Positions 6,001-36,454 of a stretch of DNA of 64,000 bases are shown piece by piece. This stretch comes from a bacterium. Its GTDB lineage: Bacteria > JAGOBX01. Under the pieces are notes generated by a model that was not told the DNA's origin, did no database searches, and was given only the letters and a program-made list of their open reading frames with translations. Positions within the stretch are counted from its first letter, which is position 1. Each line of letters begins with the position of its first letter. The stretch covers positions 18,954-82,953 of the forward strand of contig DAINAU010000001.1 in assembly GCA_036733285.1 (NCBI GenBank), read 5' to 3'. A program made the translations under genes and the position numbers.

Positions 6001-6083
6001 TTATCGGGTTTTTCAATAAGCGAACTAAACGCAACGCTTCTAATCAAAATCAATGTTAAAATGACTATTATTGTTTGTTTCAT
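1..6083 (-). CDS. Alpha-2-macroglobulin family protein (MG/A2M-type domains) with an N-terminal TPR-like region and a lipoprotein-like signal peptide. Partial: the 3' end runs past the window start.
   Basis: One minus-strand frame is open from the ATG at 6083-6081 (GGAGG 8 nt upstream) to position 1. It is absent from the ORF track only because no stop falls inside the window. My translation begins MKQTIIVILTLILIRSVAFSS. It contains TPR-like helical repeats, MG-domain-like segments (for example GETVKAEASVLYYYGSPV) and an alpha/alpha-toroid-like segment (GGEINIAVMYWALISAKNAGIEID). I saw no CGEQ thioester motif. The short plus-strand ORFs in 1736-5437 are antisense artefacts. Confidence 0.55.
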   Translation of the reverse strand, partial: MKQTIIVILTLILIRSVAFSSLIEKPDKEILSIELAMGQRNYEAALNALNNLDLKKYSGSYPQYLKSVCLFKLEKYSESLETIEKIMESGNQEWANKALYLKTDIFLKQKNYKSAAELFDLVSKNLLSEERKNKILEIYYSLAKTFAEKAAVSDNKNLKNEYYFKSFNLMKKTLVFDLPLKNKDYSAFMSAIYASKTNDKYLAIKEFENYLKEFDSNWSFEKSGVEKKIEFAGKYVLECRSGLASKYFESNNLSESKRLTENLISLVEKNNYLNDTVVLIRNDAYYNLTRIHDFLKYNSDGEFELFIKSARTFLEKCPDDYRTVSVDYEICSAYIGMNRIESALEELKKFINRSNFKINPAPEGIKVSEEPMKEFERLNQSAVYQTGELYFNRKNYDTAAIYFEQYINQFPNGREWSAAQAKKIDIDFKIGMDFLENGNYEAAEEQWKLFLKKYPLDARAPLIMFVFAEMEFRKGELELEKNNKNSAYKRFEKSIDLFNQLISKYPASPQANKAGLRITEILENNLERYADAVDELKKIRNNPAAFNKLNELTEKSLTLKTDRTFRTNENPYISLKIRNIEKFTVKLYKLDLSAYFKKYKSIQGIESLDLQLIEPDTFFVYNLDDYKKFKLYDMKINISMENAGVYAVTVSEDDYEAATLVIRSDIEGILKASRKQAFVYIQNMLTGKPQPDAEVIISDGTSIFAEGKTNKDGIAVIKHDNLKSSDNINFFAIHNNSAASDNLMLTGLQVSSGLTQKTYIYTDKPAYKQGETANIKAVIRDVKDGVYTVPEATVYLMNIYNPSNRLMKQDTVIISDYGTVSTKFDIPENAETGDYNIIVLTEKNKTLDSFNFKVSDFKLEKIKGSIVFDKEVYYRGETVKAEASVLYYYGSPVQDKLIYYTLPDGRELEGRTDSSGKFNFEFNTVSQTSEQALGFSVFLPEDNFRFSNSVFLAVDEFSIDVSISSDSIFTGENAGVFIKTNGANQKPVSKKIIMSIIKTQTTKIEPVISRVEWFKDYNKNAYTEITVETRPVITSEKGGASENLIISEAGKYIIRISGVDIFGNNISNEIKLNVSEDADYNNFRLASNLKELKEGENHKIELISGIKKSQVLLTFEGEEIIDYILIEPRQKLNSYTIDFNVKNEFFPNFTISALTMNKAKLYSSNLSFKVDRELKVSILPDKEKYFPGETAKIKIKSLNHLDKPASAEFSLALVNEALFALFEDNSMNISDYFSKDAERVSGLRLSSSISFSYSGITKKTVKDIIEESERERREQIAGGISDKYKDSFSAKPAMAGELRRSGKAKKNLNSYSDFSYGAVDNLSAPQSMDFSETKEENYKLSKQQKTLTISGTVFEAEDSDENVELYVSRKELDSASAWIAKIKIDGTGETTVEIKMPENLSEYRFTAKGISKETLAGQANKNISVQKNFFIECRIPDVLYEGDKTRPFVKIHNLTDTAGIVKMSVSFKTENFDGKTFTASLKVESRQSAEYCFEEFLVPCASYVSMEISAEMENSKLFDKLIKDIVVRPWGMNYYEVKSGKSSDKKTLFLKLNNSIKYNSQWMSIKINSGINNDLISLVLQENLPVYLRGRYVNIPDFYSVESQILASASVLKYLKSRGNETQKNEILENTKRLISQASSVQRNDGSWEGGEINIAVMYWALISAKNAGIEIDRQILPKAKIYIEQAFRRSSPENHLIKSVLLFALSCSGDADYSYANRLYRDRSELPPAALAFAALTFHNLQRFDYAKDIALLLAEKAAIKGNETYWKHKGYLYNWFSSEVEITALSMLALQKILPDNPNISKAAEFLLNRKYYSRYYPSKAVGPVAAALSEYFGNFANIKNNYYIDIYANDKKIKTVNSKQIEDCVYIDCPQSFLKQGENKIYFDFNGIGEFTYSAILEGFSNNFINSDQSDALSIGSKNYYHSPLKYKGKILTQSSFITNEIEFGDYCDVYIDIDNEYRYPSTIIEEFIPAGAKILEKTITGNFSFYKIEGPKITFFYKSNQKINDIRYSMINYNPGSYRVLPS

Positions 6084-14114: not shown

Positions 14115-16342
14115 TTGCTCGTAGCGCTTTCAATATATTTTTTCTGACTGAACTTATAATTGAATCCGTCTATTTCTGTAATAACTACTTTTATCAAATC
14201 TCCTATCTTTACTAATTCTTCGGGTTTGGTGCGGCATCCGTTTCCGAGTTCCGATAAATATACAGGACCTTTCGCGCCGAATTCCGATTCCACAAAAATT
14301 CCGAAAGGCACAAGTTTTACAACCGTCGCCTCTACAATATCCCCGATTTTATAATCGCTTTGTTCAGACGGTTGTTTTGAATCTTTTTTCAATCTCGAAA
14401 ACATACTTTTGATTTTCCCTTCGACTTTTTCCGTTTCGTATCTTTCCGCTTTGGTTGAAATCTCAAGTATTCTTGTTTTTGCGGATTCTATGTTGCTGAA
14501 TTTATTCTTTGAACTTATTACTATTACTCCATCGTCTTCAATTACTATATCGCATGATGTGTTTTTCTTGATTTCATTTATATTGACAAAATTTTTTCCG
14601 GCAATTAATCCTATTTTATTCGGATTAACCTGCAATATCCTTGTCTCCGGAATTTTGGGATTTAAATTCGGATTTGGTTCCGGAAAAAATTCTTTTATTT
14701 TATTTATAACAAATGAAAGCGACTCGGTTTGCCTGTCAAGAATAGTTTCAAGCTGATTTACGGTTAATCCCCTTTTCCTCGATTTAAAAAGAATTCCGAT
14801 TATCCCTTTTGCGCTCGCCGTAATATTTATCTCCGCGTCGGCGCATACTCTCTCAAGCATTAAAGAATCGGTTAAAGAAAAAAAATCGTTTGATTTTCGA
14901 GAATAATATAACGCGCTGTCAACGCTTGCAAATTCTGATTTCGCCTTTATCCCCGCGTCTTTTAAAGCGAGATTGGCGCTGTTGACCGCCGCGGAAATCG
15001 TCCCTCCGTCAGTTGATATGATTTCATAGATTATTCTCTTTAAATATGGAAGTTCAGATAATCCGGGAATGATGTTTTTTAAAACGTTGTCGAGATAAAT
15101 ATTTATCGCGTCTTCAAATCTGTTGAATTTTATGGAGGAATCTATTTTTCCAACGCTGAACGGATATACGTAGACATTGTTTAAAAAAGTTTGACGCTTA
15201 TATCCGTCTATTCCAAACAACCATCTTGATTTATTGACGGTTCCAAGCGTAACTACTCCCATTACCTTTGTTTTGCCGAACCTGAAAATTCCGGAGCCAT
15301 GAGCCGACGGCAGCATTCCAGCCGAGCATTCTATTTCTCTGAATTCGTTAAATTGCCGCTTGTCAAGTCTTATGTGTTTCTCAATCAGATTTTCTTTTAT
15401 ATATTCGCCTATCGCCTCATAAAAATACTTTTTTAATATATAAGGCGATACCGTTCCTATCGCGTTTTTTACAGAAATAGTTTTATACAAATCGTCTTTT
15501 AATTCATTAATTTTTAATTCGGATTTTCCATCTGAATTCAATAAATTCTCGATTTCATTCTTGTTGTTTTCGTTAAACGCCGCTATTATCTCCGAATTAA
15601 AATCAGAGTATTCGATTTTTTGCTGCGGTTTTGTTATATCTTCAAGATTTTTCCAGAGTTCTATTGCTTTCTTCTGGAAATCTATTAATGGCTCAATCGT
15701 TGATTTTAAATAACCTACGGCTCCAATTATATAAGTCGGCGAAGCGTCTTTTACAGAACAAAACATATTTATTATCAATTCTTTTGATGACGCTATCAGC
15801 AAATCGAGATTGCTGAACTGTATAATGTCCATATCCGGATTTTTAATATATCTTCCCTCGACTTCTCCAAGTCTTAATGCCGCAAAGCTATCCGAATTGA
15901 AACAGGATAAAAATGAAATCAATAAAGACAATCCTATCGATGCGGGAAGTTCCGGCGAGCATCCTTCTTCGTAAGACGTCAGAAGAATGGAAATAATTAT
16001 TTCGTTGTCTATCGCCTTATTCAAAGATGTTATTGCGCACTCGGTAAAAAAATCCGTAAGTTGAATTTCGCGAGGCGTTCTCGATTCTTCTCTTTTATGA
16101 AAATTTGACGGAATCTCTCCAAAAGAATAAAAACGCTCGGAATAAAAAAGTTTTATCGGCGAATTTATGTATTCCCCGGCGTCTAATAATCTGCGCCCTA
16201 TTATCAGATTGCAATTAACAAGGGTTTTTCCATACGATGCCTCTATGATGTAATCTGACGTTCCATTATAATCGACTAATCTTGCTTTCAACGGCTTTCC
16301 GTCGTATATTGTTTCGAATATTCTATCGTTTTTACTTTTCAT
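14111..16342 (-). CDS. pnp: Polyribonucleotide nucleotidyltransferase (PNPase), highly divergent.
   Basis: The first PH domain has FYSFGEIPSNFHKREESRTPREI (compare ...AAGRIPGSFFRREGRPSE). The second PH domain has RLDKRQFNEFREIECSAGMLPSAHGSGIFRFGKTKVMGVVTLG. KH and S1 domains follow (GDIVEATVVKLVPFGIFVE). Confidence 0.75.
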   Translation of the reverse strand: MKSKNDRIFETIYDGKPLKARLVDYNGTSDYIIEASYGKTLVNCNLIIGRRLLDAGEYINSPIKLFYSERFYSFGEIPSNFHKREESRTPREIQLTDFFTECAITSLNKAIDNEIIISILLTSYEEGCSPELPASIGLSLLISFLSCFNSDSFAALRLGEVEGRYIKNPDMDIIQFSNLDLLIASSKELIINMFCSVKDASPTYIIGAVGYLKSTIEPLIDFQKKAIELWKNLEDITKPQQKIEYSDFNSEIIAAFNENNKNEIENLLNSDGKSELKINELKDDLYKTISVKNAIGTVSPYILKKYFYEAIGEYIKENLIEKHIRLDKRQFNEFREIECSAGMLPSAHGSGIFRFGKTKVMGVVTLGTVNKSRWLFGIDGYKRQTFLNNVYVYPFSVGKIDSSIKFNRFEDAINIYLDNVLKNIIPGLSELPYLKRIIYEIISTDGGTISAAVNSANLALKDAGIKAKSEFASVDSALYYSRKSNDFFSLTDSLMLERVCADAEINITASAKGIIGILFKSRKRGLTVNQLETILDRQTESLSFVINKIKEFFPEPNPNLNPKIPETRILQVNPNKIGLIAGKNFVNINEIKKNTSCDIVIEDDGVIVISSKNKFSNIESAKTRILEISTKAERYETEKVEGKIKSMFSRLKKDSKQPSEQSDYKIGDIVEATVVKLVPFGIFVESEFGAKGPVYLSELGNGCRTKPEELVKIGDLIKVVITEIDGFNYKFSQKKYIESATSK

Positions 16343-16346
16343 AATT

Positions 16347-18107
16347 TTAAAACCTGACGCTGAAGTTTAAATTATTTCTATTCTTGTTAACGCCGGATAT
16401 TAATGTCCTTAAAAAATTTTTTAAAATGGTTTTGCATTCTTTTATTGCTTTAATTAATTTGCCTGTTTCTACGCCCTGACAGTTTGATATGATATTCAGA
16501 TATTTTATATTGCGTTCGTCTCCGATTATGCATATCCGCAAATCCGCCGCCGCTTCTTCTATGAACACGGGCTCCAATATTAAATAATTCTGTTCTATCA
16601 AATATGCGAATTCAAGACATCCGGCATCCTCGTAAAACACGTTGTTAAAAGTCTCTTCAGGATGAAAATATTTCAAAATATTTATCGCGTTGATCGGAAC
16701 GCTTATTTCCGAACCGTCGCTCGATATGTATTCGGTTACCATTCTATGCGCGCTGTTTTGTTCCAATAATTTATTAAAATTTATTATCTTGTTCAACGCG
16801 GTTTCAATCTGACCTGACCTTAACGGCTTGTATTCGTCGGATAAAATTCTGTCTCCAAGAAGAACATTAATGTTGTTTCCAAAAAAATTCGATATATTGT
16901 AAAATTTAGATTCGCTTCTGAAATCAACGTCGTCATTAATCTTTACAAATTTTTCTATCTTATTTTTTGTTCTTTTTACCTGTTGTCCTTCTTCCGAATT
17001 TTCTTCTTTTTGTCGTAATGATGTTACTGAAACAATTGCGTCCGTAACTTTCCTGTTAATTCTGCAAACCGACGTATTCTTGTTTTTCGTTATTTCAATC
17101 TCAATATCTGTTATTTTATTGGCGTAATCGTCGTATAACCGCTTTTTCTGATTAAGATTTTCTTTCACAATATTTAATAAAATCCGGTAAAAACTATAAA
17201 AATAATAGTTCTTAAATTCATCGAAGTTTTTAATATTAATGTCGGTTGACAATTCGGCATTTTTTAACAGTATCGAAGAAAGCTTGGTTAATTCTTCGAT
17301 TCTTGTTTTATAAGAATCGTAAACATATATCCCTTCAATTAACTCTTTGTTTGCAAGAATTATATTTTCGATTGAACGCTTAATATCAAAATCCGCGTCT
17401 TCCGATAAAACGCCGTTCAATTTCAAATCTATTCCGGATTCATTTTTCAAATCTTTTAAAAATTCGAAATATCCGGATTGCCCAGTTTCTATTATTCGTT
17501 TGATATTTTCAATTTGATATTCGCTGAATTCTCTTCCGGACGCTTCCAGAAAAATTAATTTCTCTGAAGTCCAGCTTATTAAAACGGAAAATTTGGATCT
17601 GTTTATTTCTTTAAATCCCGGTTCTATCTGAATTCCGGATTGACCGGAGCAAAATCTCCCCGTATAATATGGAAAATCAATTATTCCCGAAATATAACTT
17701 AGTATCATTGCGCAGTTCATAGCGAGCGAGTCGGAAGGATAACCGGAATTGCCGGATTCCAGAAGCAGATTTAATTCTATGTCCATATTGAATTTGTTCA
17801 GTTTTAACAGCGGTGAAATCTGACGCGTTATTTTTTTTTCTATTATTGAATTCTTTTGCGAATGAACGTTTTCTTCAAGATTTGACGACCCCGGCAATTG
17901 ACCGGCCGCCGAATGCCGTTCAATATACTTTATTATTATTTTGGAATCCCTTAAATTTTTTATTTTGCCGGCGTTCAAAAAACCGAATATCACCGCGTTA
18001 TTTGATTTTAATTTTATTCCAAATAGCGAGGTAATATTATCTAAAATTTCTATTTCCAATCCGTCTTTAAATAATATTGCGTCTGTAAATTTTTTTTTTA
18101 TTTTCAT
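16347..18107 (-). CDS. PNPase-like paralogue with two degenerate RNase PH-like domains and no KH or S1 domains.
   Basis: The 586-aa product has IKYIERHSAAGQLPGSSNLEEN, which aligns to the PNPase motif YAAGRIPGGFFRREG. DSLAMNCAMILSYISGI and SKFSVLISWTSEKLIFLEASGREFSE align to the PNPase first PH domain. The C-terminus lacks an S1 domain. Confidence 0.5.
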   Translation of the reverse strand: MKIKKKFTDAILFKDGLEIEILDNITSLFGIKLKSNNAVIFGFLNAGKIKNLRDSKIIIKYIERHSAAGQLPGSSNLEENVHSQKNSIIEKKITRQISPLLKLNKFNMDIELNLLLESGNSGYPSDSLAMNCAMILSYISGIIDFPYYTGRFCSGQSGIQIEPGFKEINRSKFSVLISWTSEKLIFLEASGREFSEYQIENIKRIIETGQSGYFEFLKDLKNESGIDLKLNGVLSEDADFDIKRSIENIILANKELIEGIYVYDSYKTRIEELTKLSSILLKNAELSTDINIKNFDEFKNYYFYSFYRILLNIVKENLNQKKRLYDDYANKITDIEIEITKNKNTSVCRINRKVTDAIVSVTSLRQKEENSEEGQQVKRTKNKIEKFVKINDDVDFRSESKFYNISNFFGNNINVLLGDRILSDEYKPLRSGQIETALNKIINFNKLLEQNSAHRMVTEYISSDGSEISVPINAINILKYFHPEETFNNVFYEDAGCLEFAYLIEQNYLILEPVFIEEAAADLRICIIGDERNIKYLNIISNCQGVETGKLIKAIKECKTILKNFLRTLISGVNKNRNNLNFSVRF

Positions 18108-20195: not shown

Positions 20196-21127
20196 TTGAA
20201 ATGTTTGTTAATCAAATCGATTTTCTCGCGCATTATATTATAATCGGAATCCTCCGCCGGGGCGTAACCTTCAAGTCCGCCCGCAAGCGAATTCAAAATA
20301 TTAGAGTTTTTCAAATTAATAAATGCGTCAAGCAATTTTTTTTTCAAATCCTTATTGTCTATAATATTTTTCCCTATCGCTATCGGGTCGCCGGGAATAT
20401 CGTCCGTTTCCTGTAATACCACTATATTTTTGACTTTATCGGGCGATAAATATTTTTCTACCGCGCCTTGATAACAAGCTCCTATTTCCGCGCCTTTCGA
20501 TGATATTATTTTCACAACGTTATCGTGTCCCTTTACAAATTTTACGCTTAAATTTTTTTCAATATCCGCCCCTGATTTGATTATGTCCGCAGCCGGAAAT
20601 AAAAAACCCGACGTCGAATATCTGTCCGTAAAAACCGTTTTAATTTTCTCTCTCTTCTTCAAATCCTCCAGTGATTTTATTCCAGAATCTTTATGCGTGA
20701 TTATTATTCCCTTATAAGAAGGTTTCCCGTTTCGTATTGATTTAACCAGCGGAAGCGTGTTGTTTTTTTTATGCGATTCCACGTATGAATAAGCCCCCAT
20801 TGACGCCAAATCATATTCGATTCCGGTTTTATCAACTATATTTTCGTAATTCGACGCAAATTTTAATATCACCGGCATTTCAATCTGAGCGTGAAGATAA
20901 CTGATTAATGGTTTCATTATGTTTTGTAAATCCATTGCGTTGCTCGAAGGAACAACGGCAAAATTAAGTTTCTGAATCCCCGTGTCGCTTTCAATTTGCT
21001 CCGTTGATTTTTTCGATGCGCCTACTGCGTCTGTTACGTTGTTATCGCCAACATTTCCCGAACAACCCCAAAAAAACAACATAGACAAAATTAACATATT
21101 TTTTTTTATATTTGATATGCCGGACAT
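20192..21127 (-). CDS. Lipoprotein of the PhnD/SsuA-like phosphonate/phosphate-binding family (periplasmic substrate-binding domain).
   Basis: Lipobox ...FFWGCSG. The TVFTDRYSTSGFLFP segment resembles the PhnD binding family. The stop overlaps the histidine-kinase start by 4 bp. Confidence 0.55.
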   Translation of the reverse strand: MSGISNIKKNMLILSMLFFWGCSGNVGDNNVTDAVGASKKSTEQIESDTGIQKLNFAVVPSSNAMDLQNIMKPLISYLHAQIEMPVILKFASNYENIVDKTGIEYDLASMGAYSYVESHKKNNTLPLVKSIRNGKPSYKGIIITHKDSGIKSLEDLKKREKIKTVFTDRYSTSGFLFPAADIIKSGADIEKNLSVKFVKGHDNVVKIISSKGAEIGACYQGAVEKYLSPDKVKNIVVLQETDDIPGDPIAIGKNIIDNKDLKKKLLDAFINLKNSNILNSLAGGLEGYAPAEDSDYNIMREKIDLINKHFK

Positions 21128-21455
21128 ATAATCGCCTCCGAATTAATTTTCTTTGATTATCTCAAATTTCAGTTCTTTTGTCAATATAATTTATCCCTTA
21201 GCCGAATTTCAAGCTCGGCCAGAAATTGTTTCAAAAATTTTAATAAACTTTTCTGGCGCCATTTCAGTTATTTATGTGGAAAGGAAATTTTAACATTAAC
21301 TTACAACGCTTTTTTTTAATGTAAAATATATAAAATTCAGATACCGTCGCTGAAAGTTGAATCAAGTTGCAAAGAGCGTCGAATTTCTCATTGCCGTAGA
21401 TAAAATCTATGGAAACAAAATGAAATAACGACGATTCGGAAAACAAACCTGAAAG

Positions 21456-21665
21456 GTTTGAATTTCACATAACCGTAGGTGAACTGCGCGCAGCGCAGGA
21501 AAACCTACGGAACGAAAAACACAAAATCGCTCGACCCTGAATAAGGGTCGAATTTCAAATTGTCTTAAAATTCAACCCCTTCAGGGTTGATAGATTTGGT
21601 TGGTTTTCTTCCCGCAGGTTGAATGCGCTCCGCGCAGGCTACCTGCGGTTATGTAAAATTCAACC
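21456..21665. repeat. Roughly 210-bp GC-rich imperfect palindromic (foldback, MITE-like) element with about 55-bp inverted arms and two internal mirrored hairpins.
   Basis: The left arm is ggtttgaatttcacataaccgtaggtgaactgcgcgcagcgcagg. The right arm reverse complement is ggttgaattttacataaccgcaggtagcctgcgcggagcgca, about 80% identical. Each arm folds on itself (CCGTAGGT...ACCTACGG and CCGCAGGT...ACCTGCGG). The inner hairpins CGACCCtgaataaGGGTCG and TCAACCCcttcAGGGTTGA are inverted copies of each other. Confidence 0.5.
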
Positions 21666-22004
21666 GCTTTCGCGGTTACAGATTATTAAAACTTTTTGTT
21701 TTTAAGCTCTCGGAAATTGTTTCAATAATTTTAATTTATTAGAACAATTTCTGACTGCGTCCCCGCGACTTGTTTTTGTCGTCTGAATTTGATTGACTTC
21801 TTGCCTTAATTAATATAACTTTTTATCAATTAGCTTTTATAAAAAATATATTAACAGTTTAATTTGATTATAATTAATCCCGAATAATTCATTAGAGGCA
21901 GCGAGAAGTTTCTTAAAAATTAAAATGTTATATTGCGATTGAAATTCGCAATTTATATGAAAACTTCAATTGCATTTTTTAGATTAATACAACAGGAAAA
22001 AAAT

Positions 22005-24227
22005 ATGAATACTAACAAACTAAAACCTTATATTAAATTCGACGATGATAAAAAAAATATTTTTTATATCGCGCAAAATAAAAAATACCGGTATGCCGAC
22101 CCTGAAGAACAAATACGAAGCAAGGCGTATCTTGAATTAATCAATTACGGTTACGAGCCGAAACGCATTGATTTTGAAGTCGGTATTCCGCATAGAACTC
22201 CGAATATACTTGCGGATATTGTCGTTTATAACGATGATGATTTGAAAGACCCGCATATTGTCGTTGAATGTAAAAAACCGGAAGTATCCGAAGGCGAATT
22301 CAAGCAGGCGGTTGAACAGGGATTCGGAAACGCAAATTCGCTCAAAGCAAATTATCTTTGGATTACTTCGGGAATCAAAAACGAATATTTTAACGTAAAA
22401 GATTTTCCGTCAATGGAACGCGATGCAAACCGTTTATCGGATATCCCGCGTTTTGGTCAAAAAAAAATCGATAAAGCGCAGTTTTACAAAGGCGGAATAA
22501 ACGATAAAAGCGAACAGCGTAAAGATTTAACGACTTTAAACGAAAACGAATTAACCCGAATTTTTAAGCAGGCGCACGATGCGCTTTGGGCTGGCGGCAA
22601 ACGCAATCCTTCGGAAGCGTTCGACGAATTCGATAAACTTATTTTTTGTAAAATTTGGGATGAAAAAAAATTGCGTAAAAACGGAGAACCCTACGATTTT
22701 CAGGTTTTTAGCGGCGAGAAAAACGAACTGCTTTTGAAACGCATTCAAACAATTTACGACAAAGGCAAGGAAAGGGACCCTGAAGTTTTTAAAGATAATA
22801 TCCGGCTGAATCCATACGAACTTGAAACAGTAGTAAGTTATCTTGCCGGAATAAATTTAAGCGATACCGACCTTGACAGCAAAGGCAGGGCGTTTGAAAC
22901 ATTTATGGGAAGTTTTTTCCGCGGCGATTTTGGCGCTTTTTTTACGCCGCGTCCTATTGTAAAGTTTATTATTGAAAGTTTGCCGGTAACTAACGAAGAT
23001 ATTGTTTTGGATCCGTCCTGCGGCAGCGGCGGCTTTTTGCTATACGCGCTTGATAAAGTCCGGCGCGCCGCTGATAAAATGTCTGATGACGGCTATTTTA
23101 AAAAAGACAGCTCTAAACACTATAATTTTTGGCATAATTTTGCCGAATCAAATTTATTTGGAATTGAAATTTCCGAAAGCATTGCCCGCACCGCTAAAAT
23201 GAATATGATAATTCACGACGACGGACATACAAATGTCGTATCGCACGATGGACTTGACAGTATTTACTGGATGCGCGAAAAAACAAAAAATAAGGGTTTT
23301 GCGAAAAATAAATTTGATTATATTATCACAAATCCGCCTTTTGGTTCGTCGATTCAGTCGTCGGCTAAAGCGTATGTTAAAGAATACGATTTGGGCAAAA
23401 AAAATTATGAATGGATAGAGTTAAAATTAAAAAATAAAAATCCGAATAAAGACGAAGTTCGGGAGAGGCAAAGCTCTGAAGTTTTGTTTATCGAGCAGTG
23501 CTATAATTTTCTTAAACCGGGCGGAATACTCGCAATGGTAATACCCGACGGCATTTTGACAAATTCAAGTTTACAGTATGTCCGCGGCTGGATTGAAGAG
23601 CATTACAGGATTATTGCGGTTGTGTCAATGCCCCAGTCAGCTTTTCAGGCGACTGGCGCGGGCGTTAAAAGCTCGGTTATTTTTCTTGAAAAATATGAAG
23701 AATCCGAGACCGCGGCTATCCAAAAAATAAAAATTGAATTGCAGGATAAACTATTTGAAAACAAAAAATACGGTCCCTCGATTGAAAAAATTGAACGCGA
23801 AAAAAAAGATACGCTGAAAAATAATTTTGCGAAAATTAAAGAAATTAACGAATCGCTTGATAATCATTTAAAAGCCCTTGAAAATCAAGGAAATATTGAT
23901 AAATCTAAAAAATGCGGACTCGAAAAAAATGCAAAAGATAAAATCAAACAAATTGAAAAATCTGAAGAATACGCCGATTGGCGATGCCGCATTACAGACG
24001 AATTCAACGAGCGGATAAACGCTATTAAAGAAAATCTTCAGGAAGAATTTATCGAATCCGTGAAAAAGAAAATTACGGATTATCCTGTGTTTATGGCGAT
24101 TGCGGAAGACATCGGCTATGACGCGGCAGGCAGACCGACAAATAAAAACGAACTCGAAGATATTGCTAAAGAACTTTTAGCTTTTATCGAATCTGTAAAA
24201 AAAGGAACTGATTCTTTTTTCGCATAA
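22005..24227 (+). CDS. Fused restriction endonuclease and N6-adenine DNA methyltransferase (HsdR_N/Mrr-like PD-(D/E)xK domain plus gamma-class MTase plus coiled-coil C-terminal extension). BcgI-A-like Type IIB/IIG R-M subunit.
   Basis: The likely start is the ATG at 22005 (AGGAAA upstream); the ORF-track frame begins at 21933. The N-terminus has ADIVVYNDD...HIVVECKKP (D...E-x-K). The MTase motif I is LDPSCGSGGFLLYA and motif IV is IITNPPFGSS. An approximately 170-aa Lys/Glu-rich helical tail follows. Confidence 0.7.
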   Translation: MNTNKLKPYIKFDDDKKNIFYIAQNKKYRYADPEEQIRSKAYLELINYGYEPKRIDFEVGIPHRTPNILADIVVYNDDDLKDPHIVVECKKPEVSEGEFKQAVEQGFGNANSLKANYLWITSGIKNEYFNVKDFPSMERDANRLSDIPRFGQKKIDKAQFYKGGINDKSEQRKDLTTLNENELTRIFKQAHDALWAGGKRNPSEAFDEFDKLIFCKIWDEKKLRKNGEPYDFQVFSGEKNELLLKRIQTIYDKGKERDPEVFKDNIRLNPYELETVVSYLAGINLSDTDLDSKGRAFETFMGSFFRGDFGAFFTPRPIVKFIIESLPVTNEDIVLDPSCGSGGFLLYALDKVRRAADKMSDDGYFKKDSSKHYNFWHNFAESNLFGIEISESIARTAKMNMIIHDDGHTNVVSHDGLDSIYWMREKTKNKGFAKNKFDYIITNPPFGSSIQSSAKAYVKEYDLGKKNYEWIELKLKNKNPNKDEVRERQSSEVLFIEQCYNFLKPGGILAMVIPDGILTNSSLQYVRGWIEEHYRIIAVVSMPQSAFQATGAGVKSSVIFLEKYEESETAAIQKIKIELQDKLFENKKYGPSIEKIEREKKDTLKNNFAKIKEINESLDNHLKALENQGNIDKSKKCGLEKNAKDKIKQIEKSEEYADWRCRITDEFNERINAIKENLQEEFIESVKKKITDYPVFMAIAEDIGYDAAGRPTNKNELEDIAKELLAFIESVKKGTDSFFA

Positions 24228-24274
24228 GCTCCGGGGCAGATAAAAATAAGATTTTTACCGCGAACCGGAGCGAA

Positions 24275-25654
24275 ATGAAAGATAGGTTTGATCCGCTGTT
24301 TTATTCCGGCTGGCTTCTTGGTTTTTTTAAAAAATTAAAATTTAAGACTGTCAAGTTAAAAGACTTGACATTGTATCTTAAAAATGGATTTGCGGCTGGA
24401 CATAATGATCAGTCTTTTAACGAAAACGATATTATTCAGATAAGACCAACTAACATTAATTCCGACAATATGCTTGTATTTGATAAAAATATTTATATCA
24501 GCCGTAAAACTTTAAATTTAAAAAAATCTGATGTTTTGATTAAAAATGAAATTTTATTTAATAATACAAACAGTCAAGAATTAGTTGGAAAAACTTCTTT
24601 TTTTGATTTTGATAGTATTAATTTTTGTTCAAATCATATTACGAGGATAATGTGCGGCAATAAAATATTGCCCAAATATCTTTGGATAATTTTAAATTTT
24701 TATCAAAAAAATAAAATATTTTTCAATCTATGCACTAACTGGAATAATCAATCCGGCGTTAATATTAATGTCCTTGCGAATCTTCTTATACCTTTACCGG
24801 AAAAAAACACGCAAGAAAAAATCATATCCATATTTGAGAAATCTATTATCAATAAACAATCCAAAGAATCAAAAGCCCAAAAAATGCTCGATGGAATTGA
24901 CGATTATCTTCTTTCTGAATTGGGAATAAAACTTCCTAAAGAAAAACCAAATATTTTAAAAAACCGTATTTTTAAAACAAGCGTTAAAAATATTTCTGGC
25001 GGCAGGTTCGATCCTATTTATAACGATATATATTACTTAAAATTTGAAGAAAGTATCAAACAATCAAAATATAAATTGAAAAAAATTTTTGAATTATGTT
25101 ATGGGAAATCAGGAGTTGTTTATTCGGTCAACGATGAAGCGAAAGATGGAAAAGGAATATTACGCGCAAATAACATTGATTTATCAACTAATGAACTAAA
25201 TTTGTCAGATATAAAATTTATTTCAAACAATATATTTATTAGCTCTGATTTATTATTAAAAAAAAATGATATTTTGATGTGTTCGGCAAGCGGTAGTAAA
25301 GAACATGTTGGAAAGGTAGCTTATATTTGCGAGGATTTGAATCTATATTTTGGCGGATTTATGATGGTTTTACGCGGAAAAACAAGTATGTTGTTATCTA
25401 AATATTTGTTTGAATTTTTACGGAGCCTTTTTTTTAGAAAATATTTATTTCGTCAATTAGGCGGAACAAATATTAATAATTTAAATTTTCATATGATTTC
25501 CAACTTATTCATTCCCCTGCCTCCAATAGATGTTCAAAATAAAATAGCTGAAGCGATAAAAAAAATACGCGAAGAAGCGAAACGCCTGCGATTTGAGGCG
25601 TCGTCGGAATTAGAAAATGCAAAAAAAGAAATAGAGCGAATGCTTTTAAAATAG
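24275..25654 (+). CDS. hsdS: Restriction-modification specificity (S) subunit with two target-recognition domains.
   Basis: The 459-aa product has an N-terminal RFDPLFY motif, two TRD-like halves separated by a conserved central helix, and a C-terminal conserved helix (IAEAIKKIREEAKRL). Confidence 0.8.
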   Translation: MKDRFDPLFYSGWLLGFFKKLKFKTVKLKDLTLYLKNGFAAGHNDQSFNENDIIQIRPTNINSDNMLVFDKNIYISRKTLNLKKSDVLIKNEILFNNTNSQELVGKTSFFDFDSINFCSNHITRIMCGNKILPKYLWIILNFYQKNKIFFNLCTNWNNQSGVNINVLANLLIPLPEKNTQEKIISIFEKSIINKQSKESKAQKMLDGIDDYLLSELGIKLPKEKPNILKNRIFKTSVKNISGGRFDPIYNDIYYLKFEESIKQSKYKLKKIFELCYGKSGVVYSVNDEAKDGKGILRANNIDLSTNELNLSDIKFISNNIFISSDLLLKKNDILMCSASGSKEHVGKVAYICEDLNLYFGGFMMVLRGKTSMLLSKYLFEFLRSLFFRKYLFRQLGGTNINNLNFHMISNLFIPLPPIDVQNKIAEAIKKIREEAKRLRFEASSELENAKKEIERMLLK

Positions 25655-25696
25655 ACCGCAGATTATGCGGATTTCACAATACGCAGATTTATAAAA

Positions 25697-27151
25697 ATGA
25701 AAAAAAAATCAAAAGCTATTATGTTTGTAGGAACGGGGTCGGATACCGGGAAAAGCATTATAACCGCCGCATTCTGCAGAATTTTAAAAAGACGCGGATT
25801 GAAAGTGGCGCCGTTCAAAGCGCAAAATATGGCGTTAAATTCGTATGTCTGCGATGGCGGCTATGAGATTGGCAGAGCTCAGGCTTATCAGGCGTTCGCA
25901 GCCGGAATTAAACCCGACTCGCGGATGAATCCGGTCTTATTAAAACCTTCAAGCGACTCTATGTCGCAGGTCATAATTAATGGCAAACCCCTTGATAACT
26001 TTACCGCTTCAAATTATTATAAACGCAGAAAAATTTTTAGAAACGCAAGCCGCGCAGCTTTTGATTCTTTGAGCGACGAATATGATTTTATTGTTATCGA
26101 GGGAGCCGGCAGTCCCGCCGAAATTAATTTGATGAAATACGATATTGTGAATATGTCAATGGCGGAATATGCCCAAGCTGACACTTATTTAATCGGCGAT
26201 ATTGATAAAGGCGGAGTATTTGCATCTTTGAAAGGAACAATTGATTTGCTTCCTGAAAAACACAAAAAATTGTTGAAAGGAATTATAATAAACAAATTCC
26301 GCGGAGATATGAATTTACTTATTCCGGCGTTTAAAATGTTCAGAAAATATTCTAAAATCCCTATAACCGGAGTTCTGCCTTATATTCATAACTTGACGGT
26401 TGACGAAGAGGATTCTCTGATGCGGGCAAACATCTCCGTAAATTCAGAAATTAATTCCGAAAACAAAATATGCGTCGGAATACTCGCATTGCCTCATACG
26501 TCGAATTTCACGGATTTCGACCCGTTTATTTATGAATCTGACGTTTTATTGAAATATATTTATAATCCTGAACATATTCAAGATTTTGATTGCGTTATCA
26601 TACCCGGCAGCAAATCGGTGGCTGCGGATTATCTTTTTTTGAAAGAAAGAAATTCTATTAAAACGCTCAGAAAATTTGCGGAAAATAAAAAAAAATTTCT
26701 ATTTGGCGTTTGCGGCGGTCTGCAAATGCTCGGTTCTAACATTACGGATTCCGACAATATCGAAGGTTCAATCAAAAAAACAAGGTTGTTAAATTTTTTT
26801 AATTTTAACACCGAACTGAAAAAAAATAAAATTTTAAGACAGGTTGATGATGCGATTAATTTCTGTAACCGTAAATTTAAAATTACCGGTTATGAGATTC
26901 ACAACGGGGTTAGCGATATAACGCAGGCGGATAAAAATTTTATGATGCGCGATAATATTGCGGCTTCGTATATTCACGGTTTATTTGACAACGATTCATT
27001 CAGACGCGCTTTTTTAAATCATCTTCGTTCAATTAAAGGATTAAAACCGGTCTGCAAAATAACAAATATAACTAAAATCAAAGAAAAAAACATTGATTGC
27101 CTTGCCCATATTGTTGAAACTAATCTTTCCTCGTTATCCCGAAAACTCTAA
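25697..27151 (+). CDS. cobQ: Cobyric acid synthase-like protein (CobQ/CbiP: ATPase domain plus class-I glutamine amidotransferase domain).
   Basis: GTGSDTGKS P-loop variant, MNP motif, and GATase catalytic FGVCGGLQMLG. The 484-aa length is typical of CobQ. I see no other cob/cbi genes in the window. Confidence 0.75.
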   Translation: MKKKSKAIMFVGTGSDTGKSIITAAFCRILKRRGLKVAPFKAQNMALNSYVCDGGYEIGRAQAYQAFAAGIKPDSRMNPVLLKPSSDSMSQVIINGKPLDNFTASNYYKRRKIFRNASRAAFDSLSDEYDFIVIEGAGSPAEINLMKYDIVNMSMAEYAQADTYLIGDIDKGGVFASLKGTIDLLPEKHKKLLKGIIINKFRGDMNLLIPAFKMFRKYSKIPITGVLPYIHNLTVDEEDSLMRANISVNSEINSENKICVGILALPHTSNFTDFDPFIYESDVLLKYIYNPEHIQDFDCVIIPGSKSVAADYLFLKERNSIKTLRKFAENKKKFLFGVCGGLQMLGSNITDSDNIEGSIKKTRLLNFFNFNTELKKNKILRQVDDAINFCNRKFKITGYEIHNGVSDITQADKNFMMRDNIAASYIHGLFDNDSFRRAFLNHLRSIKGLKPVCKITNITKIKEKNIDCLAHIVETNLSSLSRKL

Positions 27152-28608: not shown

Positions 28609-29247
28609 TTATTCTTCCTGAATATAAAAATGCGGAATAATGCCTTTTGATTCGAGACGTCTCGCTTCATAAACCGCATCGCGTCTTAATTTGAATTTAC
28701 CTATTCTTACTTTATACATATTGCCTGATTTTACAGCGTAAGCGTCGCAACCGCGGGTTTTTAAAATATCCCGGAAAGATTCCGCTTCTTTTGAAGTTTT
28801 ATACGAATAAACTTCAATTAAATAAGTTTTATTTTTTTTTGATGGTTTTGTTTTGAGATTATTTTTTTTCCCCGCCGGTTGTTTATTGTTTGGGTTTGCG
28901 GCGGCGTCAACATTTTTTGGAGGTTCTTCGGTTTTAGCGCCGCTTTTATTCTCGGCGTTTTCCGCGGCGGTTTGAGAATCGTTTCCCTTATTTGCGGCGG
29001 TCTGCTGTTTTCCTGAATCGGCAATTTGAAACGTTCCGTTTAATATCGATGTGTCCGGCTGCGTAATTTTATAAAGAACATTACTCTGATTTTCAACTCG
29101 CGAGTTTTTGAAAGATACGGTTTTTCCGGTAAAATATCCGGCGCCGAAAACAACCGCTAATATCGCCAAACATATAAAAATTATTATCTTTACGGCTTTT
29201 TGTTCAATATTTAAAATATATTTTTTTCCGCCGGAATCGTTTTTCAT
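28609..29247 (-). CDS. SPOR-domain membrane protein (cell-division-associated peptidoglycan binding).
   Basis: One TM helix, a low-complexity Lys/Asn/Pro-rich linker, and a C-terminal SPOR-like fold (YLIEVYSYKTSKEAESFRDILK...YKVRIGKF). Confidence 0.6.
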   Translation of the reverse strand: MKNDSGGKKYILNIEQKAVKIIIFICLAILAVVFGAGYFTGKTVSFKNSRVENQSNVLYKITQPDTSILNGTFQIADSGKQQTAANKGNDSQTAAENAENKSGAKTEEPPKNVDAAANPNNKQPAGKKNNLKTKPSKKNKTYLIEVYSYKTSKEAESFRDILKTRGCDAYAVKSGNMYKVRIGKFKLRRDAVYEARRLESKGIIPHFYIQEE

Positions 29248-31954: not shown

Positions 31955-33013
31955 TTATTCAGCGGCGACTTCGTCTTTAGCGTTTAAATCGAAATTCTGA
32001 AAAATTTTATTTTTTATTTCTTCAAGCAATTCCGGATTTTCAGCAAGCGTCTGTTTTGCCATTTCTTTTCCCTGTCCGAGTTTGGTTTCATTATATGAAA
32101 ACCACGCGCCGCTTTTATTTATGATTTTTAAATCTATCGCCGAGTCCACTATGCATCCAATTTTTGAAATTCCTTCAGAATATATTAAATCAAACTCCGC
32201 GCTTTTAAACGGCGACGCCATCTTGTTTTTCACAATTTTAACGCGCGATTTTATTCCTATCATTTCGTCGCCTTTTTTCAAGGTTTCGGCTTTTCTTATT
32301 TCCATACGCATTGAAGCGTAAAATTTTAATGCGTTGCCGCCAGTGGTTGTTTCCGGATTTCCATACATTACTCCGATTTTCATTCTGACCTGATTGATGA
32401 ATATCATTGTCGTATTCGATTTGCTTAAAACGCCGGTTAATTTTCTGAGCGCTTGAGACATTAAACGGGCTTGAAGTCCCATATGCGAATCGCCCATTTC
32501 CCCTTCAATCTCCGCCCTCGGAGTTAACGCCGCAACCGAATCCACAACTATAACGTCGAGCGCGCCCGACCTTACAAGTTGTTCCGCTATTTCAAGCGCC
32601 TGCTCTCCGTCGTCCGGCTGCGAGATATATAAATCAGAAGTGTTCACGCCAAGCAATTCCGCGTATGTCGGATCAAACGCGTGTTCTGCGTCTATAAACG
32701 CGGCTATGCCTCCCTGTTTCTGAGCTTCGGCTATTATGCTTAAAGTTAATGTCGTTTTTCCGGAGGATTCCGGTCCGTAGATTTCTATTATTCTGCCGCG
32801 CGGAACTCCGCCTATTCCCGTAGCTACGTCAAGCGTTAGTATTCCGCTTGGTATAACGGGCAATTTCTGATGCTCTGAATCGCCAAGTTTCATTATTGCG
32901 CCTTTGCCGTATTTCTTTTCTATCCCTGAAATCGCGCTGTCCAGCACCTTTAATTTATCTTTGTTTGAATCTGCCGCTGGTTTTGTCTCTTGTTCCGGTT
33001 TTGCTTTTGCCAT
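31955..33013 (-). CDS. recA: Recombinase A.
   Basis: [13 protein letters not shown] Walker [27 protein letters not shown]. The 352-aa product has an AGGAGA RBS. Confidence 0.97.
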
Positions 33014-33325: not shown

Positions 33326-34306
33326 TTATTTTATATTTTCAATTAATTCTTTAAAAATAACGCTATTAACGACATATTTGGAAGTATTATTCGGCTCCTT
33401 AACATCGGAATAAATCGCTTCCCAATGTCTGCCGGTTCTAATTTCCGAATAAGTATCATAAATAATAACATATAATATTTTTTCAATATTAAATTTTTTC
33501 TTTAATAAATTTTCATCGGCAGTTTCTTTTAACATAAAAATTCTTTTAGCGTCTATTGCTTGGTTATCCTGCCCGCCGCCAGCCATATTCTGTTCTTTAT
33601 GCGCGCCAATAATTAATGTATTTTTAATTTTACATATTACATCGGGATATTTTAATTCGGTAACGCCCAAAATATTAAGTATTCCGTCAATTTTTTTTAC
33701 TTCTTTTTCGTCAATAAGCCAATCCCCGCTATTTGATATTTCTTTTTGTAATAAAAGTTTTTTGGAAAGCAAATCAAAAACAATTTTATCAAACATTCCC
33801 TTTCTTCGAGTAGGCGATTTAAGAATATATTTTGATTCTAAATTACTTAACATTATAGCAAAAAAATGATAATCAATATTTTTTATTATTTCAAATAATT
33901 GTAATGATTTTAACTGGGTTAATAATAATTCTTCATCTTTAAGCAATGAGTCTATTTGATTTAAACCTGAAATATTTAAAAGTAACCAACAAAATGATTC
34001 GATACCATTAACATTATTTCTTTTTTCTTTTATTTCTTTTAAAACAAGTTTTATATTTTCAATTGCAATATTTAATATTTTCTCGTCAATATTATCAATT
34101 GATAATTCATCTTTTTTTTTCAAATCATATAAATAAACGATATAATTTTTTATTTTATTTATTGCGTTTTTGTATTCTTCGCTGTAACGAAATTCAAATC
34201 CCATATCTTTAAAAATTTCTTGATAAACTGGATTTAGAAAAGCAATATTATTTATTCTATATTGTTTATTATTAAATTTATCAAAACATTCTTGCGGCAG
34301 TAGCAT
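33326..34306 (-). CDS. Hypothetical protein. Candidate restriction endonuclease of the two-MTase R-M module.
   Basis: The 326-aa product has no motif I recognise. It lies 10 bp downstream of, and in the same orientation as, two DNA MTase genes. Confidence 0.3.
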   Translation of the reverse strand: MLLPQECFDKFNNKQYRINNIAFLNPVYQEIFKDMGFEFRYSEEYKNAINKIKNYIVYLYDLKKKDELSIDNIDEKILNIAIENIKLVLKEIKEKRNNVNGIESFCWLLLNISGLNQIDSLLKDEELLLTQLKSLQLFEIIKNIDYHFFAIMLSNLESKYILKSPTRRKGMFDKIVFDLLSKKLLLQKEISNSGDWLIDEKEVKKIDGILNILGVTELKYPDVICKIKNTLIIGAHKEQNMAGGGQDNQAIDAKRIFMLKETADENLLKKKFNIEKILYVIIYDTYSEIRTGRHWEAIYSDVKEPNNTSKYVVNSVIFKELIENIK

Positions 34307-34316
34307 AAGGACACCT

Positions 34317-35768
34317 CTAATTAAAACTTAACTCTAATTGATTTGATTTTTCACCAATACAGTTTGTATTTAAAAAGTCTAAAACTTTATTTGCATTTTT
34401 TTCTGTTATTAGTTTAGAAAATCGAACTTTCATTTTTGGGGATAATTTTATCGGATATGTTTCTAATATTTTTTTAGCCTGCGTTAATCCTAAATATTTT
34501 CTCACATATTCGCTATTAGAATATTTATATGAAGTCATAAATTCACTGTCCGTAATTTCACGAAGATATTCTAAAATCAAATTAAAATAATCTTTAATTA
34601 TTTTTTGCTCGTCGATTAAAATATTTTCTTCAAAAAATATCTGAATTGGGTGAGTTCTAAATTTGCTTTTAGTTACTAAAATTCCATCGCAATCAAAAAT
34701 CTGTTTTGTAATATACAATCCAGCGCGTCCATCTTGAGAACCGGTATCGACAGTTCTAATAAATAAAATATTATTTTTGATTGTATTATAAATCAAATCA
34801 TTTACTTTTCTTTCTGTCTTTACATATTGTCCATTTTCAAATTTATTAGCGTCTAATAAATCAATAATTTTATTGCCGTTTATTATTGTTTTTTCTTCAA
34901 GATAAAACGAAAATTTAATTTTTTCGTTTTGAGTATATAAATCTAAAAAATCTGACAGTTCGTTACCTGCCCTATATGAATTTTTATATTTTAAAATATA
35001 TTTCTTTTCTACAGTTTTACAGTTAATTTTAACGCCATTAAAAATAATATCTTTTTTGTTTGTTTCATTTTTTCGTGTAAAATTACAAACCACAACATTT
35101 GTTCCAGTAAATTCAAAAATTTCTTTTTCAAATATTATTGCTTTATTCATAGTATAATACTGAAAGAAATCTTTCCGTATTTTATTTGAAACAGATGCGC
35201 CAAATAAAAAATTTGATGGAATTATATAAATCATTTTATATATTTTATTCCTTAAATCATTAATTAAAGCCAATTGATATAAATCTTGATATCCTTCATT
35301 AGATTTATCATTAAAATATTCAAAATTGGTTTTGAATCTTTCTTTGTTTTTTACAATATATCCTAAATATAAATATGGTGGATTTGTTATATGAAAAACC
35401 GGCTTCTGGAATTTTTTTAAAAATTTAATTGGATAATTTTTGATAGTATCATTTAAAAAAATATTTTTTTTTGCAATATCTTCCGGTATTCCTTTCGCCA
35501 TAGTATTTAATAATAGTTTATCAAAATTTTCTTTTTGAATTTCAAACATATAAATATTGTTTTTGAAAAATTCTATTTTTTTTTCAGGTTCTATATAATC
35601 TAAAATTGGCAGTATGAGATTTCCTTCTCCGGCATAAAGATCAATCCATACATACTCATTTATATTATCTTTTATCCAAGGAAAAATATATTCTTTAAAT
35701 AATTCAATTGGAGTAAAGTGTTCTCCATAAAATCGTTTGGTTTCTTTATTATTTAAAATTTCGTTCAT
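34317..35768 (-). CDS. Gamma-class N6-adenine DNA methyltransferase with a C-terminal recognition region.
   Basis: GEHFTP (motif X), IDLYAGEGNL (motif I) and HITNPPYL (motif IV). The 483-aa product overlaps the upstream MTase stop as ATGA. Confidence 0.75.
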   Translation of the reverse strand: MNEILNNKETKRFYGEHFTPIELFKEYIFPWIKDNINEYVWIDLYAGEGNLILPILDYIEPEKKIEFFKNNIYMFEIQKENFDKLLLNTMAKGIPEDIAKKNIFLNDTIKNYPIKFLKKFQKPVFHITNPPYLYLGYIVKNKERFKTNFEYFNDKSNEGYQDLYQLALINDLRNKIYKMIYIIPSNFLFGASVSNKIRKDFFQYYTMNKAIIFEKEIFEFTGTNVVVCNFTRKNETNKKDIIFNGVKINCKTVEKKYILKYKNSYRAGNELSDFLDLYTQNEKIKFSFYLEEKTIINGNKIIDLLDANKFENGQYVKTERKVNDLIYNTIKNNILFIRTVDTGSQDGRAGLYITKQIFDCDGILVTKSKFRTHPIQIFFEENILIDEQKIIKDYFNLILEYLREITDSEFMTSYKYSNSEYVRKYLGLTQAKKILETYPIKLSPKMKVRFSKLITEKNANKVLDFLNTNCIGEKSNQLELSFN

Positions 35769-36454
35769 TTTATTTCTTTTAAGCGTATTTTCGTTATTTT
35801 ACAAAAATCTGAATCAATTTCAATCCCGATATACTTTCTGTTTAATTTTTTACAAGCGACAAGCGTTGTTCCGACTCCGGCAAAACAATCCAATACATTA
35901 TTGTTTTCTTGTGAAGCAATTTGTATGATATTTTCAATTAATTTAATTGGTTTTTGAGTAATATGCTGTTTCTTATCTTTTTTAAAATTTGATTGCGGTT
36001 GCGCAAATTCCCAAACATCGTTATATAATAATTTTTCTGAATTATTTTGTTCCCAAATGTTTAATTTGTTTTTTCCTTTTGCAAACATCAACAATCCTTC
36101 CCAATTATTTCTTAATCTGTCAAAAGGAGTAAATTTGTAATAATTTTTTTTATACCATACAATAAAATTTTTGTAGGCAAAACAATTTTTTTCTCCAATA
36201 TCTATGATATAACTGCTTAGTCTTACATCGCAAAAGCAAAAAAAAAATCCTTTATGAATTTTTTCTGAAAGTATAGCAAAGATATCAGATAACCAATTAA
36301 TATAATCATTTAGTGTTTTCCATTGATTATCCCATTTTATTGATTTTAGGTTGTTATAATACGGTGGATCAATTATAATTAAGTCAATAGAATTATCGTC
36401 AATTTTTTTTAACAATTTCTGGCAATCGCCGCAATACAAAATATTTGTTTTCAT
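35765..36454 (-). CDS. Beta-class DNA methyltransferase (N4-cytosine or N6-adenine; the DPPY motif precedes the FxGxG motif).
   Basis: LIIIDPPYY (motif IV) lies N-terminal and LDCFAGVGTTLVA (motif I) lies C-terminal, which is the beta-class permutation. The product is 229 aa. Confidence 0.8.
   Translation of the reverse strand: MKTNILYCGDCQKLLKKIDDNSIDLIIIDPPYYNNLKSIKWDNQWKTLNDYINWLSDIFAILSEKIHKGFFFCFCDVRLSSYIIDIGEKNCFAYKNFIVWYKKNYYKFTPFDRLRNNWEGLLMFAKGKNKLNIWEQNNSEKLLYNDVWEFAQPQSNFKKDKKQHITQKPIKLIENIIQIASQENNNVLDCFAGVGTTLVACKKLNRKYIGIEIDSDFCKITKIRLKEIK

Follow-up and report, generated by a model that had tools for sequence, protein, structure and literature searches.

A paddle-less relative of BsaXI: an adjacent RM and S gene pair that probably encodes a restriction-modification enzyme of Type IIB

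We analysed a stretch of 64,000 nucleotides from a bacterium of the lineage JAGOBX01 (GenBank assembly GCA_036733285.1, contig DAINAU010000001.1, positions 18,954 to 82,953 of the forward strand), called here the window, in which two adjacent genes encode a nuclease joined to an N6-adenine methyltransferase (RM, for restriction and modification) and a specificity subunit (S) with two target recognition domains (TRDs). This RM-S pair is probably a self-contained, ATP-independent Type IIB restriction-modification (R-M) enzyme that resembles BsaXI but is devoid of its paddle. The reading follows from the match to BsaXI, from invariant catalytic residues in the nuclease domain and from the absence of HsdR, both in the window and around the 74 related loci that were informative. 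The Type IIB features that a genome can show are found here, namely a nuclease and an N6-adenine methyltransferase in one chain, a two-TRD S module and no translocase in sight. In biochemical terms the class is defined by cutting of both strands at either side of a bipartite site, by which a short fragment is excised. A sequence-only reading of the same DNA had already preferred Type IIB to a Type I system missing its R gene, and our results lead to the same choice. Its proposal of BcgI as the closest architecture did not survive, as the RM protein carries a helical "knob" that places it nearer to BsaXI and to enzymes of the AloI and CjeI type.

The RM gene runs from ATG to TAA and its product has 740 amino acids (aa), the 741 counted earlier including the stop codon. 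An in-frame TTG at position 21933 is an alternative start that would extend the protein by 24 aa; the NCBI protein P0001, which is identical to the RM protein of the window and is recorded under the name "N-6 DNA methylase", starts at 22005. Pfam recovered the two domains described from the sequence alone, an HsdR_N-type PD-(D/E)xK nuclease at the N-terminus (HSDR_N_2) and a gamma-class N6-adenine methyltransferase (N6_Mtase, residues 291-598, E 1e-33), and the motifs then quoted are indeed present, with IVVECKKP at residues 85-92 and methyltransferase motifs I and IV as given in Table 1. No match to the HsdM_N domain was found by Pfam in the RM protein. Between nuclease and methyltransferase lies a multi-helical connector, which aligns with the connector of BsaXI from residue 200 of the BsaXI chain on and which is as conserved within the family as the methyltransferase core (67% identity).

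Conservation was read from an alignment of 34 homologues with 55-64% identity, and an AlphaFold2 model of RM was built on 34 sequences (mean predicted local distance difference test score 83.8). In this model, the N-terminal domain has the alpha-beta-beta-beta-alpha-beta core of the PD-(D/E)xK nuclease fold. The sequence-only reading had reckoned with a domain that might lack its catalytic residues on alignment; in fact, E58, D71, E88 and K90 are all invariant across the 34 homologues. Such invariance in diverged proteins suggests that the nuclease is under selection, and by its conserved residues the domain looks functional. The same residues correspond to E73, D90, E105 and K107 of BsaXI, with D71...E88-x-K90 placed by HMMER opposite D90...E105-x-K107, and in BsaXI alanine at any one of these four positions abolishes cleavage (PMC11997821).

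BsaXI is a Type IIB enzyme made of an RM subunit of 916 aa and an S subunit of 476 aa, with structures 8w0p, 8w2p and 8w2q in the PDB (PMC11997821, PMC9159934), and it is the one structurally solved relative within this rare kind. Its RM chain (8w0p_A) is the best PDB sequence match of the window RM (E 4.4e-38, query residues 171-720 on chain residues 200-773), and HsdM proteins come next, none better than E 4e-17. Structural comparison gave the same order, as Foldseek against the PDB returned three BsaXI RM chains on top (E 1e-27 to 2e-29, the best 1.8e-29, over 834-873 columns), followed by the best HsdM at E 1e-15 and by Type IIG/IIL enzymes such as DrdV and BpuSI at about 1e-10. The two systems share the RM-then-S gene order (PMC9159934), a separate two-TRD S subunit and the lack of a translocase, and their RM chains share the succession of nuclease, multi-helical connector, gamma-class N6-adenine methyltransferase and helical knob ahead of the last strand.

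The knob is the region that had been described as an unusual 170-aa Lys/Glu-rich coiled-coil tail. Its composition (19% K and 17% E over residues 565-691) and its helicity stand, but not its position, as in the AlphaFold2 model it is inserted between the penultimate and the last strand of the methyltransferase fold and is not a terminal coiled coil. The model predicts five helices (residues 566-584, 590-606, 609-628, 633-651 and 654-689), followed by three short strands (696-715) and one helix of 18 residues (716-733), and the chain ends 49 residues past the knob (residues 692-740). Nor is the region unusual, since it is the counterpart of the BsaXI knob and was found in 34 of the 34 aligned family members, although it is the least conserved part of RM (36% identity within the family versus 55-67% elsewhere). 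In the HMMER alignment, RM residues 535-720 align with BsaXI 594-773, which sets residues 565-691 opposite the BsaXI knob (about 626-742), and the AEDIGYDA motif that follows has "FMAEAENVGY" as its BsaXI counterpart. The knob of BsaXI, residues 626-742, is multi-helical and lies between strands seven and eight of the methyltransferase sheet, and its base forms with the eighth strand a hydrophobic cradle for each TRD of the S subunit (PMC11997821). Lying opposite this knob, RM residues 565-691 would therefore be the S-docking, DNA-proximal insertion typical of this branch.

BsaXI also carries a paddle, a long antiparallel two-helix extension of about 140 aa that comes after the eighth strand and holds D816 and E823, and this part has no equivalent in RM; both the HMMER alignment and the AlphaFold2 model leave BsaXI from about residue 775 on without a counterpart. 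In a set of proteins more than 50% identical to BsaXI, those of fewer than 800 residues are likewise predicted to be knob-only forms (PMC11997821). Thus, among the features of the BsaXI-like subfamily the knob is present, while the paddle and a close sequence relationship are missing.

By its knob, RM also resembles BsaXI and AloI in build more than it does BcgI. The BcgI, BaeI and Bve1B23I RM subunits (614-637 aa) have, as modelled, a Type I-like C-terminal tail instead of a knob (PMC11997821). BcgI and BaeI (RM subunits of 626-637 aa; PMC11997821) do resemble the window pair in fusing a nuclease, with the motif PE...ExK in BcgI, to an N6-adenine methyltransferase and in having a separate HsdS-like subunit, but they end in a lone helical tail, a difference taken from published descriptions only (PMC11997821). 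The single-chain enzymes AloI, CjeI, CjePI and HsoII are predicted to carry the knob (PMC11997821). These RMS proteins of 1262-1303 aa, in which RM and S form one chain, share with the window the predicted knob followed by the order TRD1, conserved region 1 (CR1), TRD2 and CR2, and they differ in that RM and S are fused, whereas the window has separate genes; for AloI and CjeI the comparison uses published descriptions.

The S gene was correctly placed from the sequence alone: an open reading frame (ORF) of 459 aa, from ATG to TAG, begins exactly 47 nt past the RM stop codon, with a GGAG 8 nt ahead of its ATG, and Pfam detects Methylase_S in two stretches of the protein. The protein is duplicated internally, as expected of the order TRD1-CR1-TRD2-CR2: RFDP stands at residue 4 and again at 244, IPLP..Q.KI at 172 and again at 413. 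Residues 4-458 are collinear with residues 770-1220 of P0045, a natural RM-S fusion of 1225 aa that has 58% identity to the window RM over its first 740 residues. Among solved structures, S comes closest to Type I HsdS proteins (E 1e-15 for EcoKI S), and phmmer detected no similarity between BsaXI S and the window S. TRD2 of S weakly resembles TRD1 of EcoKI, but this likeness is too distant for a transfer of specificity, and a prediction of the target sequence was rejected.

We also noticed that TRD1 of S (24275-24799) is 52% identical to TRD2 of P0045 (residues 1004-1188) and 48% identical to TRD2 of the S protein in the related locus L001 (12343-13626). The same recognition module thus occupies swapped positions in S modules of two unrelated relatives, evidence for TRD reshuffling in the family.

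The absence of HsdR was noted earlier for the window and is confirmed here. No helicase domain was found in the 26 ORFs of the window scanned with Pfam, which take in every ORF of at least 398 aa except one, and no HsdR lies within the 22 kb upstream or the 38 kb downstream of RM-S that the window covers. Besides RM, only three ORFs of the window reach 700 aa; they encode a protein with RNase PH, KH and S1 domains, a P-type ATPase and, with more than 2027 aa, a secreted TPR protein.

Related loci show the same picture. A protein search with RM returned at least 7,946 proteins at E ≤ 1e-10, and the top 120 relatives, the identical copy P0001 aside, have 55-63% identity across 98-100% of the length. 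Their sizes are mostly 731-763 aa, with three longer proteins (971-1225 aa) that include RMS fusions. In a scan of one genome per species, at least 581 species had an RM relative, from Proteobacteria, Bacteroidota, Cyanobacteria, Chlorobiota, Acidobacteriota, Deinococcota and other phyla. Among plasmids, tblastn found distant relatives without the knob (27-34% identity) and one partial match of 64%, all annotated "N-6 DNA methylase".

We then surveyed 80 loci from other species with 10-kb flanks, of which 74 were informative and six lay on contigs too short to place the S module. The S module follows RM directly in 63 loci (gap of −20 to +362 nt), comes one gene further downstream in four and is fused to RM in seven as one chain of 903-1233 aa, so that it is adjacent or fused at 74 of the 74 informative loci. 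Natural fusions known from the family include P0045, P0072 (1223 aa) and loci of Microcystis and Thiocystis (1186-1233 aa), and the fused forms, at 1023-1233 aa, mirror the layout of AloI and CjeI (1262-1296 aa). The conserved unit is therefore the RM-S pair or a single RMS chain, and the fusion and fission of RM and S among loci is independent evidence that the two work together. The flanks are essentially devoid of HsdR-type helicases: of 47 neighbouring ORFs with 700-1300 aa in the 80 loci, counted without overlaps, only two matched ResIII and three matched DEAD, and three relatives inspected individually showed RM followed by S and no HsdR.

A third gene accompanies the pair in part of the family. 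By clustering of neighbour ORFs, a gene encoding about 500-520 aa was found in 32 of the 80 loci, or in 31 of the 63 with enough downstream sequence. In 22 loci there is a 4-bp overlap with the stop codon of S; elsewhere the gene starts at most 50 nt past S, is found 0.8-1.3 kb downstream or shares about 100 nt with S, and three loci have it between RM and S. At its N-terminus, the DGQHR domain (TIGR03187, E 1e-11 to 6e-10) and DndB are matched below threshold, and its C-terminus has faint CARF/TIR-like matches. This DGQHR gene may be a third component of the family. No homologue of it was detected in the window even at E 10, and cobQ begins 42 nt past S; what the window holds is therefore the minimal form, with two genes only. 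L001-L003, the closest relatives found, likewise are without the third gene.

By analogy with BsaXI and BcgI (PMC11997821, PMC9159934), the enzyme would work as follows. One S subunit would carry two RM subunits, each bound to one of its two TRDs by the base of the knob and by the last methyltransferase strand, and the (RM)2S complex so formed, which is the stoichiometry of BcgI (PMC9159934), would read a bipartite target whose asymmetry comes from the difference between the two TRDs. With S-adenosylmethionine (SAM), one adenine would be methylated in each half-site of the host DNA, and unmethylated incoming DNA would be cut by the N-terminal nuclease domains at fixed distances, probably at both sides of the site, in the presence of Mg2+ and with no need for ATP. 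Cleavage geometry is the weakest step of this scheme, as BsaXI requires the paddle residues D816 and E823 for cleavage (PMC11997821) and RM does not have them.

Several points weigh against a self-contained Type IIB enzyme. RM is only 21-22% identical to BsaXI in the Foldseek alignment, and the family is much more distant than the published set of homologues above 50%. Considering that the paddle is missing, the cutting geometry or even the competence to cleave could differ. The best PADLOC model of RM (PDLC03030, E 2.8e-160) bears the label of a Type I methyltransferase, and the NCBI record gives only the name "N-6 DNA methylase". It is possible that an unlinked hsdR lies elsewhere in the genome, beyond the 64 kb of the window. 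In addition, the DGQHR gene is translationally coupled to S in half of the relatives, so the two-gene form may be incomplete, and no biochemical data were found for members of the RM family. With these points taken together, we still consider the Type IIB reading the probable one, and the pair is an uncharacterised knob-only RM and S form of a known Type IIB kind rather than a new kind.

A further reading makes more of the differences from BsaXI. The RM family could be a distinct ATP-independent RM and S branch, in which cleavage without a paddle may deviate (one-sided cutting, nicking or a need for two sites), in which about half of the members have the translationally coupled DGQHR/DndB-like partner and of which the window would show the minimal form. 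We hold this to be possible but unlikely.

The pair might instead be an orphan Type I-like M and S, active in modification only, with a nuclease-like domain that binds DNA or is vestigial, or else a Type I system with its HsdR elsewhere. Databases would suggest so, as they name RM "N-6 DNA methylase" or "type I restriction enzyme M protein" and as PDLC03030 belongs to the Type I methyltransferase group of PADLOC. The S protein is most similar to Type I HsdS structures, EcoKI S being the best, and the housekeeping surroundings of the pair are compatible with a domesticated methylase. Type I R-M systems such as EcoKI indeed share with the window a two-TRD HsdS-like subunit with two conserved helices and an HsdM-related gamma-class core. 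On the contrary, they have an HsdR with a superfamily 2 (SF2) translocase and a nuclease, an HsdM N-terminal domain and the helical HsdM C-terminal tail, which forms a bundle with the conserved regions of S, and none of these three accompanies the window pair, and in the window the nuclease domain is fused to the methyltransferase. The E, D, E and K residues are invariant in 34 diverged homologues, which speaks for a nuclease under selection, and HsdR-type helicases are missing in the window and nearly so around the 80 related loci. The RM protein has no HsdM_N domain, its C-terminus is a knob and not the helical tail of HsdM, and it matches BsaXI far better than any HsdM. We therefore regard an orphan or incomplete Type I system as quite unlikely.

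It appears very unlikely to us that the pair is what remains of a larger defence system based on methylation, or a minimal version of one, either the methylation-associated defence system (MADS) or the RM-S-DGQHR operon, having lost its effector or regulator or needing partners. In MADS, as described by Maestri et al. 2024 (cited in 10.64898/2026.09.23.753747), MAD2 is the methyltransferase and MAD5 the S subunit. The window pair does match the NCBIfam models MADS2 (E 8.4e-93) and MADS5 (E 1.3e-23) as well as PADLOC mad2 and mad5, the MAD2 layout of nuclease-like N-terminus and methyltransferase being shared and the model covering RM residues 57-573. However, the scores stay under half of the curated cut-offs (311.8 versus 720 bits for MADS2 and 83.6 versus 400 bits for MADS5), and MADS is a multi-gene operon with further mad genes, including ATPases, none of which stands by RM-S; membership in MADS was rejected on these grounds. 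The DGQHR gene, found directly past S or within about 1.3 kb in 31 of the 63 related loci, would favour a loss of partners, but the window has no homologue of it, the other half of the related loci, including L001-L003, are without it as well, and RM and S are intact. Apart from one weak match to PD-Lambda-5_A, neither another mad gene nor a recognised defence component flanks the pair.

Table 1. Positions of the RM and S genes and of their parts in the window, with examples of the third gene in related loci (positions within each locus).
Feature	Position	Strand	Description
RM gene	22005-24227	+	nuclease, helical connector, N6-adenine methyltransferase and knob; Pfam HSDR_N_2, N6_Mtase, Eco57I
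PD-(D/E)xK nuclease domain, residues 33-148	22101-22448	+	Pfam HSDR_N_2, E 3.5e-14
Putative catalytic residues	E58 22176-22178; D71 22215-22217; E88 22266-22268; K90 22272-22274	+	
Multi-helical connector, residues about 180-305	22542-22919	+	helices at 180-304 in the AlphaFold2 model
Gamma-class N6-adenine methyltransferase core, residues 306-564	22920-23696	+	Pfam N6_Mtase
Motif I DPSCGSGGFLL, residues 336-346	23010-23042	+	invariant or nearly so in the 34-sequence alignment
Motif IV NPPFG, residues 443-447	23331-23345	+	invariant or nearly so in the 34-sequence alignment
Knob, residues 565-691	23697-24077	+	five-helix Lys/Glu-rich insertion; AlphaFold2 model and BsaXI alignment
Return to the methyltransferase sheet (strands 696-715) and C-terminal helix 716-733	24078-24224	+	no paddle; AlphaFold2 model
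AEDIGYDA motif	24102-24125	+	invariant or nearly so in the family alignment
S gene	24275-25654	+	TRD1 about 1-171, CR1 about 172-240, TRD2 about 241-412, CR2 about 413-459
Third gene, locus L010	13641-15131		
Third gene, locus L015	13617-15170		
Third gene, locus L004	13668-15230		Aeromonas veronii CP110364.1

The RM-S pair stands in a housekeeping context. Upstream of RM, on the minus strand, are genes for a phosphonate-binding protein and a PAS histidine kinase, together with those for a 586-aa unknown protein and for the RNase PH/KH/S1 protein, which is PNPase-like; downstream of S, cobQ on the plus strand is followed by pgi on the minus strand. PADLOC was run on eight neighbours and the PD-Lambda-5_A match (E 2e-4, 18.5 bits) was the only one, to an ORF of 212 aa at 28609-29247, 3 kb downstream, the other seven matching nothing. 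Defence-island contexts, unlike this one, were seen in relatives: GmrSD-type (Type IV) genes adjoin the RM-S(-DGQHR) operon in L010, L014, L020 and L023 (at about 15140-17050), they lie upstream and divergent in L001-L003, and a YhcG/DUF1016 nuclease follows S in about seven related loci.

The 877-bp intergenic region upstream of RM (21128-22004) contains an imperfect hairpin of about 205 nt (21458-21663), whose 84-nt arms are 73% complementary and whose DNA fold has −67 kcal/mol and a z-score of −10.5. It lies between 23-nt direct repeats at 21222 and 21713. The hairpin has no second copy in the window and no Rfam match, and it could be an element resembling miniature inverted-repeat transposable elements (MITE) or repetitive extragenic palindromic (REP) sequences. 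A bracketing of the RM-S island by the 23-nt repeats was rejected, as both copies are upstream of RM. An Rfam scan of 20900-25800 gave matches at chance level only, no tRNA gene was found in the window, and a scan for promoters and terminators was uninformative in this AT-rich DNA (25 sites versus 17.6 expected). Phase variation was dropped as well, homopolymer tracts occurring at 2.2 per kb in RM and S versus 1.6 per kb window-wide.

Elsewhere in the window, a second and unrelated R-M-like island adjoins recA (31955-33013) on the minus strand, at 33326-36454, with a GC content of 0.24 versus 0.33 for the window. It encodes an N6_N4_Mtase protein of 229 aa (35765-36454, E 2e-42), an N6_Mtase protein of 483 aa (34317-35768, E 1.5e-12) and a protein of 326 aa without a Pfam match (33326-34306), which could be the endonuclease. 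The secreted TPR protein is encoded by a large ORF at 1-6083 on the minus strand, with a signal peptide and TPR-like repeats, which runs past the left end of the window.

In conclusion, the labels "N-6 DNA methylase" and "Type I M subunit", which annotation pipelines give to RM and its thousands of relatives, obscure what is probably a restriction enzyme complete in itself. Recognising these proteins as BsaXI-like corrects inventories of defence systems, in which they would otherwise be missed or scored as orphan Type I methylases. The family is also a source of candidate enzymes for the excision of short fragments, with TRDs that can be swapped, and its natural knob-only variants could help to separate the roles of the BsaXI knob and paddle in cleavage. 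For the source genome, RM-S is an ordinary defence gene pair that merits correction of its annotation but will not surprise a specialist, while the family as a whole is worth one biochemical characterisation.

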